This document shows positions 29,062 through 32,003 of a stretch of 64,000 nt of DNA, one piece after another (position 1 is the first letter of the stretch; the number at the start of each line of letters is the position of its first letter). The DNA is taken from positions 1,021-65,020 of the forward strand of contig CALAYC010000215.1 in the NCBI GenBank assembly GCA_937894935.1, given 5' to 3'. Origin of the DNA: an uncultured Verrucomicrobiota bacterium (GTDB lineage Bacteria; Verrucomicrobiota; Verrucomicrobiia; Limisphaerales; JADLHS01). The notes under the pieces were generated by a model, which was given only the letters and a program-made list of their open reading frames with translations, was not told the DNA's origin and did no database searches. The position numbers were made by a program, and so were the translations under genes.

Positions 29062-30555
29062 TTAATTCGCTGCGGATTTAGGCGGGGCGATTTGGATCGC
29101 TTGTGAAATACCGAAGCGTTCGAGGATGCGTTGGGTGGCTTCGCGTTCCGGTTTTCCAGCGGCGAGAATCATCCGTTGCAACGTGTCATTAGGCGTGAAG
29201 TCAATGACGTGGAAATCGCCTGCGGGTTGTTTTAAGGCTTCGCGGAGATCGCTCAGGGAAGTGATGCGCCGCCCATTGACTTTGTCCACCACGTAACCGC
29301 GATATTCCTGATAACCGATGTTGAAGCGGTCAGGCAGGACTTGCGAGAGGATGACGAGCGACGGCTGTTCTTTGGTGGCTTCGTTGTCGCGATAGTAATT
29401 GAAGCGGAACGGCGCATTGCGTTGCCATTCGTTGCCCCAGCGTTGCAGATAGGGAACGGTGAGCGGTTGAAAAACGAGGCCGCCGACAATCAGGTAATCG
29501 GGTGGTTGATCGTAAACGCCGAGCGGGACGAGGAGATTGGTGTAATCGTATTTAGGCAGGCGATAGCTGATTTCCTGAGCTTTGCCATCGCGCCAGATTT
29601 TCATTTTGATTTCGTCACCAGCCCAATGCCGCCGCGTGGCGAGATTTTCCAACATCAACTGACCGTAGTCCGGATCGAAGTAATCGCCTTCGGTATCAAT
29701 CGCGAAACCGTCAATTTCCAGAATGATGTCGCGTTCTCTAAAAACCAACGGGTGATCGTCGGGACGCGGAGGCACATCAATGACCAACACACCACGCGGT
29801 GCACCCGGAAGTTTTAGATTTGCGAGGGAAGCGGGATTTTCCGCCGGTTGCCAATAAAAGTGGAAATAGCCGAGGGCACGTTCGGGGCCGGAGCGACGGG
29901 CGTCCAGAATGCGTTGCACAAACGACGCGGGAATAACGCGACACGTGCGGCCTTGTTGTTGAGCGATGAGACCGACGACTTGAGAGTTTGCGATGACGGG
30001 TTCACCAAGCCCGGCAGCCTGAATGTCTGAAGCGATTTCCATTTGCACATGACTGATTTCGCTGAACTGGCTTTTGCGCACCGTGAACTGGGTGAATTCC
30101 GCCTGGCGAACTTCGAGTTTGCCTTCGCGCCAACGAAGAATCTGCAGCGGTGTGCCTTCGCTGGCGGGTTTCGCGGCGAAGGCGGCGGGGCGCAGGTCGG
30201 CGCGGAATTCTTCATCGGTAATCGTCAGCACGGCGAGATTGGCGTAGTAATCCACCCACGCGACTGTGGCGATGACCCACGGACCGCGACCGCCTTTCTG
30301 CACGCGAACCAAAGTTCGGTCGGAAAGACTTTCGGACGTGGTGAGAATTTGTTGGTCCGCGACGACGAGCCCCATTTTGACGGCCAATTCGTTGCGCGTG
30401 TTCCAGGGTTGGTAGTAATCGTACGCCCGGCGCGTGACTTCAATGCGCACGACCGATTTCTCCCATTGCGCCGCGGTGTTGGCAGGCGTGGTTTGCGGCA
30501 ACGCAGTGGTTGCCGCGGTAAAAAACAGAATTAAAGCGAATATAGAATTTTTCAT
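29062..30555 (-). CDS. Catalytically degenerate paralogue of the upstream Deg9/Nma111-like protease (pseudoprotease with PDZ-like regions)
   Basis: It is colinear with the 30552-32003 product, but triad positions are replaced. These are LTTSESL for MTNAHVV, ANLAVL for CDLAIL, and IQAAGLGEPV for INPGNSGGPV. It has a signal peptide. Confidence 0.7.
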   Translation of the reverse strand: MKNSIFALILFFTAATTALPQTTPANTAAQWEKSVVRIEVTRRAYDYYQPWNTRNELAVKMGLVVADQQILTTSESLSDRTLVRVQKGGRGPWVIATVAWVDYYANLAVLTITDEEFRADLRPAAFAAKPASEGTPLQILRWREGKLEVRQAEFTQFTVRKSQFSEISHVQMEIASDIQAAGLGEPVIANSQVVGLIAQQQGRTCRVIPASFVQRILDARRSGPERALGYFHFYWQPAENPASLANLKLPGAPRGVLVIDVPPRPDDHPLVFRERDIILEIDGFAIDTEGDYFDPDYGQLMLENLATRRHWAGDEIKMKIWRDGKAQEISYRLPKYDYTNLLVPLGVYDQPPDYLIVGGLVFQPLTVPYLQRWGNEWQRNAPFRFNYYRDNEATKEQPSLVILSQVLPDRFNIGYQEYRGYVVDKVNGRRITSLSDLREALKQPAGDFHVIDFTPNDTLQRMILAAGKPEREATQRILERFGISQAIQIAPPKSAAN

Positions 30556-32003
30556 AAGCGCCGGTCGCTGGCCACACCGTAGGTTTCAAGAATTTGAGGG
30601 GTCGCGCGCACTGCGGCGGCGTGTTCCAAAGTTTCAAATCCACTGCGGCGGCTGAAGCGGATAACATCAAAATCATTCGTGCTGGTTTCAAACGCGCGGA
30701 TGACGTCTTCGAGTTTCTCAATGCGAATGCCGTTGATGGTATCCACAAGCACGTGACCGCGCGTGGCGAAGTTGGCGTTCACGGCATCACCGAGAATGGT
30801 GCTCATGACAATCGGCTCGGCACGGGTGGATTCCGGATTTTCGCGGGAGCGATAGAACAATTCATAGGTCAGGTCCGCGCCAGAACCCTCATAATGATTC
30901 CGTCCAGCGCTACGCAGATAATCGCGTGATAATGGCGTGAACACGAGTCCGCCGAATACATAATAGCGCGGGCGAATGTCGTATTGATTTCCTTCAGCGC
31001 CATCTTCAGTTGTGGCTTCAACGCGCACTTTCAATTTCAATTCTTTGCCATCGCGCCAGATTGTGACTGGAATTTCATCGCCGTGTTGTGCGAGTTGAAA
31101 GCCGAGGGCGGCGAAGAGGCGATTGCCCTCATAAAGAATCGTTGCGTCGCTGGCGACGGGATAATCGCCGATGCGGAGCAGGACATCTTCGGCCTGCAAA
31201 ACTTCTGCGGCACCGGTTTTGGGGCGAATGCGATCCACGCGTGCGCCGAGGTTGTTGTCTGGTAATTTGAGTTTGGCGCGATACGCCGGATTTTGCAGCG
31301 GCACAATGTTGATCCCGGCGAGCGGCACGCCATGGTAGTGACCGTCTTCGATGTCTTTCAGAAAGCGGAGCGCGAGTTCGGGCGGAATGAAGAAACCGGT
31401 GTTTTCGAGGCCGGCGATGCCTTGAAACGCGACGCCGACGACGCGGTCATCTTGAACCACCGGGCCGCCGCTGTTGCCGGGATTGATGGCGGCGTCCGTT
31501 TGCACGCTGAGCAGGCGACGATTCCCGATGTGAGCGTAGGCGCTCAATTCGATGCGCGAAACGACGCCGCGCGTGTAGGAAATTTCTTCGCCGCCGGCGG
31601 GATAACCGTAGGTGACGACCTGTGAGCGAACCTTCGGCAATTCACCGAATTCCAATGCCGGTACGCCATCGAAAAAGCTGTCGTCTTCCACTTTGAGAAT
31701 CGCGAGGTCGCAATCGTGCGCCACGTATTCCACCTGGGCGAGGTAGGGGCGGGCGTCCTGATATTTGCGCACGATAATTTGGCGATTCCAGCCGACGACA
31801 TGCGCGTTGGTCATGATGCGTTTACCACGAATGACGAAGCCTGATCCGCCGGCGCGTTGGACGGCTTCCGAGCGCCACGGCATGACCCAATCCGGCTCCT
31901 GGCGATAGGTCAGGATTTGAATGACGGAGCGTTCCGGCTCAATCCCGAAGCAGCGCCCGGCCAGGCCCAGAACCAAAATGCAAATAACAAAGTGGCGAAA
32001 CAC
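30552..32003 (-). CDS. Periplasmic trypsin-like serine protease, S1C Deg9/Nma111-like, with C-terminal PDZ-like domains
   Basis: It has a signal peptide and an intact triad context (TNAHVV, HDCDLAILKV, DAAINPGNSGGPV). The layout resembles plant DEG9-type Deg proteases. Confidence 0.85.
   Translation of the reverse strand: MFRHFVICILVLGLAGRCFGIEPERSVIQILTYRQEPDWVMPWRSEAVQRAGGSGFVIRGKRIMTNAHVVGWNRQIIVRKYQDARPYLAQVEYVAHDCDLAILKVEDDSFFDGVPALEFGELPKVRSQVVTYGYPAGGEEISYTRGVVSRIELSAYAHIGNRRLLSVQTDAAINPGNSGGPVVQDDRVVGVAFQGIAGLENTGFFIPPELALRFLKDIEDGHYHGVPLAGINIVPLQNPAYRAKLKLPDNNLGARVDRIRPKTGAAEVLQAEDVLLRIGDYPVASDATILYEGNRLFAALGFQLAQHGDEIPVTIWRDGKELKLKVRVEATTEDGAEGNQYDIRPRYYVFGGLVFTPLSRDYLRSAGRNHYEGSGADLTYELFYRSRENPESTRAEPIVMSTILGDAVNANFATRGHVLVDTINGIRIEKLEDVIRAFETSTNDFDVIRFSRRSGFETLEHAAAVRATPQILETYGVASDRRL

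Follow-up and report, generated by a model that had tools for sequence, protein, structure and literature searches.

Overlapping genes for an active Deg2/Deg9-type HtrA protease and a catalytically dead paralogue form a conserved pair in Verrucomicrobiota

A pair of HtrA-type genes was examined in a stretch of 64,000 nucleotides (hereafter called the window) from contig CALAYC010000215.1 of an uncultured Verrucomicrobiota bacterium. Two long open reading frames (ORFs), both on the minus strand, are arranged head to tail. The upstream gene (30552–32003) starts with GTG and encodes a Deg2/Deg9-type HtrA protease of 483 amino acids, which comprises a signal peptide, a trypsin-fold protease domain, a first PDZ domain (PDZ1), and a second PDZ domain (PDZ2) of the PDZ_3 type. 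The downstream gene (29062–30555) starts with ATG and encodes a Deg2/Deg9-like paralogue of 497 amino acids. In this protein, a signal peptide and a degenerate protease domain (residues ∼32–222) are followed by PDZ1 (residues ∼230–335) and PDZ2 (residues ∼350–485). The two are referred to below as the active gene and the dead gene.

The genes overlap by four nucleotides at positions 30552–30555 (minus strand), where the stop codon of the active gene and the ATG of the dead gene share the sequence ATGA, which is a signature of translational coupling. The junction reads CGC-TTA-TGA, and the two ORFs are in different frames. The encoded proteins are full-length paralogues that are 27% identical over 480 columns (BLASTP, E = 1e-35), and their N termini resemble Sec signal peptides when judged by eye (MFRHFVICILVLGLAGRCFG for the active protein and MKNSIFALILFFTAATTALP for the dead protein). 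An original prediction for this locus, that two colinear genes for secreted proteins overlap by ATGA, holds in these respects, and the location of both genes on the minus strand, which it did not state, can now be added.

The active protein matches the Pfam models Trypsin_2 (6.6e-23), Trypsin, and PDZ_3 (PF17815, 1.1e-27, residues 339–481), as well as PDZ_2 at residues 249–328 with a score under the gathering threshold. Its best matches in the PDB are Arabidopsis Deg2 (4fln, 6e-70) and Deg9 (5il9, 1.5e-68), and the alignment is full-length. The catalytic triad is intact and aligns with the catalytic residues of Deg2 and Deg9: His68 in TNAH68VV (codon 31800–31802), Asp99 in HDCD99LA (31707–31709), and Ser178 in GNS178GGP (31470–31472), all on the minus strand. 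The protein therefore has the traits by which Deg2/Deg9-type members of the HtrA/Deg family (MEROPS S1C) are recognized, namely a triad in a trypsin-fold domain followed by PDZ1 and a PDZ_3-type PDZ2. We predict that it is a secreted, catalytically competent HtrA protease of this type. The "Deg9-like" label of the original prediction proved apt for both proteins, given these PDB matches, the PDZ_3 domain found in each, and the similarity of a model of the dead protein to the plant enzymes (template modeling [TM] scores of 0.82–0.89).

The dead protein aligns end to end with Deg9 (5il9, 9.9e-32) and Deg2 (4fln), and PDZ_3 (1.4e-34) and PDZ_2 are its sole Pfam domains; no protease model in Pfam matches it, and there is no NCBIfam family for it. 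All three triad positions had been suspected of carrying replacements. Alignments with 5il9, 4fln, and family members bear this out: Glu75 (TTSE75SL, codon 30331–30333) occupies the position of the His, Asn106 (YYAN106LA, 30238–30240) that of the Asp, and Leu183 (AAGL183GEP, 30007–30009) that of the Ser, again on the minus strand. The loss extends to relatives of the protein. A search of 5.8 billion proteins (E ≤ 1e-5) returned 797 of them, and in the best 120, which are at least 54% identical to the query, PDZ domains are the only Pfam domains. In these 120, the His column holds Asp, Gln, or Glu and never His, Asn fills the Asp column in nearly every case, and the residue in the Ser column varies (Trp, Leu, Ser, Thr, Phe, Tyr, and others). 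We considered whether the triad might be shifted or an alternative nucleophile used. This explanation was rejected, as no His lies at or beside the His column in the 120 close homologues, and the few distant members of the dead family with a His at that column are without the Ser. The triad is thus lost rather than displaced, and this holds across the whole dead family. Since the dead protein lacks the triad while having the overall fold of the Deg2/Deg9 type, it is a homologue of these enzymes by descent and not a protease.

Retention of the fold is indicated by structure prediction. An AlphaFold2 model of the dead protein, computed from an alignment with 116 diverse family members, has a predicted local distance difference test (pLDDT) score of 94 and a predicted TM score of 0.89. 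When the whole chain was compared by using Foldseek, the model matched 5il9 chain A (TMq 0.83, TMt 0.89) and 4fln (TM 0.80–0.87) over ∼470 columns, versus TM scores of only ∼0.45 with DegP and DegQ. A further feature concerns assembly. In Deg2, Trp134 on loop LA and Tyr440 of the internal PDZ2 ligand stack together, and this contact yields a rigid, cage-forming protomer (PMC3481350). Both window proteins carry this Trp/Tyr lock pair, as W43/Y347 in the active protein and as W51/Y354 in the dead protein. The dead-gene codons for Trp51 and Tyr354, which correspond to Deg2 Trp134 and Tyr440, are at 30403–30405 and 29494–29496 (minus strand), respectively. Across the 116 diverse dead-family proteins, Trp51 is invariant (116/116), and the position of Tyr354 is scored as aromatic in all 116 (Tyr in 92, Phe in 17, His in 4, and Trp in 3). 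Pro50 and Trp51 are the sole invariant residues of the dead protease domain in this set.

The proteins without a triad form a sizable family. When 1.84 billion cluster representatives (clustered at 50% identity) were searched exhaustively with HMMER, 3003 relatives were recovered at E ≤ 1e-3 and 438 at E ≤ 1e-30. Among the best 150 representatives, 125 are full-length; approximately 118 of these have lost the triad and seven carry His-Asp-Ser. The dead family accordingly comprises at least 118 clusters at 50% identity. It divides into at least six deep subfamilies that can be told apart by what replaces the GNSGGP loop (GWGEP, GSFTLP, GGDGEP, LGWSEP, DGEGAP, or xGQL). In neighbor-joining trees rooted with AtDEG1 and AtDEG8, the dead clade is monophyletic in 200 of 200 bootstraps, which points to a single ancient loss of catalysis. 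The plant Deg2/9/10 proteins fall with the active-type (His-Asp-Ser) sequences, outside the dead clade. The dead clade is never the sister of the clade of active partners in these bootstraps, a placement in which long-branch effects are likely.

To see which parts of the dead protein are constrained, the divergence of dead and active proteins can be compared for 30 orthologous pairs. The dead-to-active ratio is 1.23 overall, and by domain it is 1.87 for the protease domain, 0.86 for PDZ1, and 0.91 for PDZ2. By this measure, the dead protein is under purifying selection that is strongest on its PDZ domains, to which constraint has moved. The subtrees of the active and the dead proteins are congruent (r = 0.98 for the correlation of pairwise distances). 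A match of this kind reflects co-inheritance and does not by itself prove contact between the proteins.

These data also bear on whether the downstream ORF could be a young duplicate on its way to becoming a pseudogene, or else an annotation or assembly artifact. Such an ORF might be expected to lack a Pfam protease match and all three catalytic residues, as the downstream ORF does. However, the 497-amino-acid ORF is intact, full-length orthologues that are 55%–79% identical are found in many genomes, the family is monophyletic with its 118 or more clusters, the structural model is of high confidence, and the PDZ domains are better conserved than those of the active partner. The pseudogene explanation was rejected on these grounds, and its probability is close to nil. 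Database annotation is nevertheless a poor guide to the family. Because neither a Pfam protease match nor an NCBIfam model exists for the dead proteins, members are left unnamed or are labeled as active proteases; the source names include "hypothetical protein," "PDZ domain-containing protein," "serine protease," and "S1-C subfamily serine protease." A dedicated family model would correct this annotation.

Another possibility is that, as in MamO, the degenerate protease domain now serves to bind a small ligand or a metal ion, and that any partnership with a protease is secondary. Within the window subfamily, some of the best-conserved residues of the domain surround the former active site (the LTTA motif, Asn106, Glu185, and an acidic or amide residue in place of the His), and such an acidic pocket might accommodate a cation. 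These active-site residues are not conserved in the wider dead family, however, where loop L1 carries motifs such as GWGEP, GSFTLP, GGDGEP, DGEGAP, and xGQL, and the dead protein resembles MamO only in the general HtrA fold. It has no transporter domain, and its gene context is not metal-related. We consider this explanation very improbable.

The original prediction called for a check of whether the pair is conserved in related genomes, and it is. In a scan of one genome per GTDB species, 29 loci were returned, 28 of which include upstream DNA and are informative. Most locus titles name Verrucomicrobiota, Limisphaerales, or Pedosphaera-type metagenome-assembled genomes (MAGs). Taxonomic labels that are unreliable were not used; these belong to Third Party Annotation (TPA) MAGs titled "uncultured Bifidobacterium sp." (L001, L002, L006, L016, and L029) and to homologues labeled Clostridia, Haliangiales, and Candidatus Acidoferrum. 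An orthologue of the active gene (59%–80% identity) is directly upstream of the dead gene in 27 of the 28 informative Verrucomicrobiota loci. The four-nucleotide overlap, either ATGA or GTGA and in frame, is present in 26 of the 27 that hold both genes. The exception at the junction is locus L024 (3400–4001), where ∼400 extra nucleotides separate the stop codon of the active gene from the conserved start of the dead gene and the junction ATGA is outside the dead-gene frame. This arrangement suggests an N-terminal extension or a frameshift in that MAG. The exception in adjacency is locus L022 (79–5407), where the gene upstream of the dead gene encodes a 1260-amino-acid surface protein of the PA14/Ig/GLEYA type that is unrelated to the active protease. 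Genuine uncoupling, a rearrangement, or misassembly of the MAG could account for this.

The arrangement is also found far from the window sequence. We sampled nine representatives, one for each distant dead subfamily, whose dead proteins are 25%–32% identical to that of the window and whose contigs range in G+C content from 0.39 to 0.73. A Deg9-like gene lies directly upstream on the same strand in all nine. A four-nucleotide overlap is called in seven, and one more has a possible GTGA. A trypsin domain or a GNSGG motif is present in every upstream gene whose N-terminal part is covered by the contig. Metagenomes were scanned with a single protein, P0187, whose subfamily carries the labels Chthoniobacterales and Terrimicrobiaceae and thus represents a second order of Verrucomicrobiota. 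Of five loci returned, four have the active gene upstream and the fifth is without upstream DNA. The genes that flank the pair vary among the lineages that carry it, and hence the pair itself is the sole conserved unit. Taken together, the dead gene is almost always inherited beside its active partner, and these comparisons show the pair to be an old and widespread gene module in Verrucomicrobiota and in other, unlabeled bacteria.

In several distant lineages, a four-nucleotide overlap recurs at the 3′ end of the dead gene, this time with a third gene (L032, 2134–3240; L043, 2440–3315; L045, 2025–3092; and the P0230 locus, 5509–6486). This third gene differs by lineage, encoding a DUF2279 protein, a DUF1295 protein, a polyprenyl synthetase, or an unannotated 325-amino-acid protein that is followed by NamZ. 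The pair is at times part of longer coupled operons. At locus L031 (1–2535, G+C content of 0.39), a trypsin-like gene that is cut by the locus end and a gene for a 666-amino-acid protein without a Pfam match lie upstream of the pair on the same strand, and this region may be a larger protease cluster.

Within the window, the pair is flanked on both sides by genes on the opposite strand and so forms a self-contained bicistronic unit. On its 5′ side, a divergent intergenic region (32004–32132) is presumed to hold the promoter; a sigma-70 scan of this region found no promoter site. Beyond it is a maltose-acetyltransferase-like gene that diverges from the pair (32133–32693, plus strand). On the 3′ side, ilvN and ilvC are convergent with the pair on the opposite strand and end at 28887. 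A GC-rich, terminator-like hairpin (28906–28931, plus strand), identified by a consensus match only, lies between ilvC and the end of the dead gene. The 64-kb window contains no tRNA genes, and no Rfam family matches it at the gathering threshold.

A rhomboid-domain protein with a C-terminal DUF6576 domain is encoded at 26317–27390 (minus strand), ∼1.7 kb and two genes (ilvN and ilvC) from the pair; it is another gene of an envelope or membrane protease family near the HtrA genes. On the plus strand, 32808–36044 encodes a multi-pass membrane protein of 1078 amino acids with a weak N-terminal match to ABC2_membrane_2 and a long C-terminal region without a Pfam match. The ORF at 36069–40790 (plus strand, 1573 amino acids) carries a rhamnogalacturonan lyase family 11 domain (E = 7e-239), fn3, and PATR autotransporter-type repeats, and its product looks like a large secreted pectin-degrading enzyme.

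Several known protease systems resemble the pair in part. HtrA proteases work as trimer-based oligomers, and the closest relatives in structure are plant Deg2 and Deg9 (4fln and 5il9). They share with both window proteins the protease-PDZ1-PDZ2 architecture, the PDZ_3-type second PDZ domain, the fold, and the Trp/Tyr lock. However, the plant enzymes, found in organelles and the nucleus, assemble from active subunits into homo-oligomers (hexamer, octamer), whereas the window encodes a bacterial periplasmic active member that is coupled to a dedicated dead paralogue.

The arrangement of an active unit followed by a degenerate one has a counterpart in plant Deg7 and fungal Nma111, in which an active protease-PDZ-PDZ unit precedes, in the same order, a degenerate protease-PDZ-PDZ unit that arose by duplication (PMC3194040, PMC3473262). 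The degenerate protease domain of Deg7 drives trimerization (PMC3194040), so that a dead HtrA domain with a structural role has a direct precedent. Deg7 and Nma111 differ from the window pair in being a single chain of ∼1000 amino acids with four PDZ domains, whereas the window has two overlapping genes with a junction that is conserved in relatives. The Pfam model for Nma111-type PDZ domains also differs from the PDZ_3 model that matches the window proteins. We considered whether Deg7/Nma111 could be a homologous source, such that the bacterial pair would be its unfused ancestor. A hidden Markov model (HMM) of the dead family gives AtDEG7 (sequence from the supplement of PMC3473262) 38.5 bits, with 19.4 bits for its C-terminal half, versus 354.5 bits for AtDEG10. 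BLASTP of either window protein against AtDEG7 finds no significant match in the protease domain. The homologous-source hypothesis was rejected on both counts. Because the dead unit is not specifically related to the C-terminal half of Deg7, the resemblance is convergent.

Magnetosome proteins provide a second precedent. MamO is a bacterial HtrA pseudoprotease that is encoded beside the active HtrA protein MamE and is required for its activity, and pseudoproteases arose by duplication and were retained (PMC4794232). MamO differs in that its function depends on a transporter domain at the C terminus and on a di-histidine metal site, and in that its gene lies in the magnetosome island (PMC4794232), whereas the dead protein of the window has two PDZ domains and is without the transporter domain, the magnetosome context, or the MamO signature. 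Against the NCBIfam MamO model, the active protein scores 25.6 bits where the cutoff is 800, and the dead protein has no match. With ilvN/ilvC, the rhomboid gene, and the acetyltransferase gene as neighbors, the pair does not have the features that define a MamE/MamO system.

The MamO precedent is relevant to another explanation, which is that the dead protein acts as a transient regulator. It could be an inhibitor or decoy that sits on the PDZ or active-site surfaces of the protease until stress occurs, or it could be a substrate adaptor. MamO is needed for MamE-dependent proteolysis (PMC4794232), which establishes a role for pseudoenzyme partners in the HtrA family, and the PDZ domains are the best-conserved part of the dead protein. 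However, a regulator of this kind would have no need for the whole three-domain, cage-forming architecture or for the rigid-protomer lock. Moreover, no conserved new surface motif was identified, and the ∼1:1 synthesis implied by coupling suits a subunit better. We therefore regard a transient regulator as improbable.

Protease complexes built from paralogous subunits are known elsewhere. The Deg5–Deg8 hetero-hexamer of the thylakoid lumen is one, but both subunits carry the triad in the sequences we read, and AtDeg5 is without a recognizable PDZ domain (PMC3473262). Likewise, ClpR is an inactive paralogue inside an active ring in the mixed ClpP/ClpR rings of cyanobacteria and plastids (PMC3194040). 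This is also a protease complex of mixed paralogues, but the Clp fold is unrelated to that of HtrA. In neither system are the subunits encoded by a coupled pair of bacterial Deg2/9-type genes.

The best reading of the window pair is that the active and dead proteins form a hetero-oligomer, because the translational coupling is conserved, the genes are co-inherited, and the cage-forming fold is retained. In this mechanism, the active protease and its dead paralogue, which are made together and probably in a fixed ratio, would co-assemble in the periplasm as a mixed HtrA cage. The likeliest forms would be a hexamer in which an active trimer is stacked on a dead trimer, or mixed trimers, either of which is compatible with a Deg2-type hexamer. 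The dead subunits would serve as a scaffold and as PDZ-mediated binders of substrates or activators, and they would control entry to the active sites of the partner, of which the cage would hold three instead of six. That the two proteins are dedicated functional partners in one way or another is highly probable, and physical hetero-oligomerization, which we infer from the features above, is rather likely. The original prediction of an obligate hetero-oligomeric periplasmic protease with a regulatory or substrate-binding dead subunit is in this sense partly supported, with the hetero-oligomer and the role of its dead subunit being the parts that we infer.

Several observations weigh against mixed cages. 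The correlation between the active and dead trees is mostly due to shared species history and is expected for any two co-inherited genes. Adjacency in an operon and translational coupling prove co-expression and not co-assembly. The dead gene of locus L022 follows the unrelated PA14/Ig gene, and the junction of locus L024 differs. Bacterial proteases of the Deg9-like type with intact triads also occur without a dead neighbor, at L039 (1055–2581) and L040 (595–2058). One of these genes is near a GGDEF-like gene and a gene for an FKBP isomerase, and the other is near an RND transporter gene. Both proteins group with plant Deg2/9/10, outside the clade of active partners (62%–78% bootstrap in neighbor-joining trees). 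The existence of such stand-alone active proteases in bacteria and plants means that the fold does not need a dead partner. Finally, the former Ser position is occupied by varying residues and there is no universal replacement site across the dead family, and so this position offers no clue to a specific new activity.

A rival explanation is that the dead protein is an independent periplasmic holdase or chaperone that is merely co-expressed with the protease, so that the two would be separate arms of a single quality-control operon. It would form its own Deg2-like homo-oligomeric cage and capture unfolded proteins of the envelope by means of its PDZ domains and its dead cleft. Deg2 itself combines chaperone-like and protease activity (PMC3481350), and the dead protein, with its complete cage-forming fold and its LA–PDZ2 lock residues, could assemble on its own. 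In addition, its PDZ domains are under the strongest constraint. However, the in-frame four-nucleotide overlap is kept down to 25% identity and across G+C contents from 0.39 to 0.73, a degree of conservation that simple co-regulation would not require and that is characteristic of subunits produced in a fixed ratio. Furthermore, a dead gene without an adjacent active gene is seen at only one of the 28 informative Verrucomicrobiota loci; the nine distant subfamilies sampled and the four informative metagenome loci provide no further case, whereas the active type does occur alone. An independent holdase is unlikely, albeit not markedly so.

A stronger version of the hetero-oligomer proposal is that the pair encodes an ancient, obligate two-subunit HtrA machine, in which active blades are combined with a dead, PDZ-based sensor, gate, and scaffold. 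Such a machine would be an independently evolved, unfused counterpart of Deg7/Nma111, and it would be present in at least two Verrucomicrobiota orders and several unlabeled lineages. We put this full version forward tentatively, at slightly less than an even chance.

ATP-independent quality control by proteolysis in the bacterial envelope depends mainly on HtrA proteases, which are textbook homo-oligomers. Pseudoprotease partnerships are known among them, although a widespread, translationally coupled pair of active and dead Deg2/9-type proteins apparently has not been described; no published account of such a bacterial pair was found in a search that covered few papers from subscription journals. 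If the proposed assembly exists, asymmetric HtrA complexes that contain pseudoenzymes would be a general bacterial design that extends beyond magnetosomes and plant Deg7. The contribution of a degenerate HtrA unit is hard to dissect in the fused eukaryotic proteins. With its two separable genes, the bacterial pair would offer a tractable system for learning what such a unit contributes in scaffolding, gating, and substrate capture.

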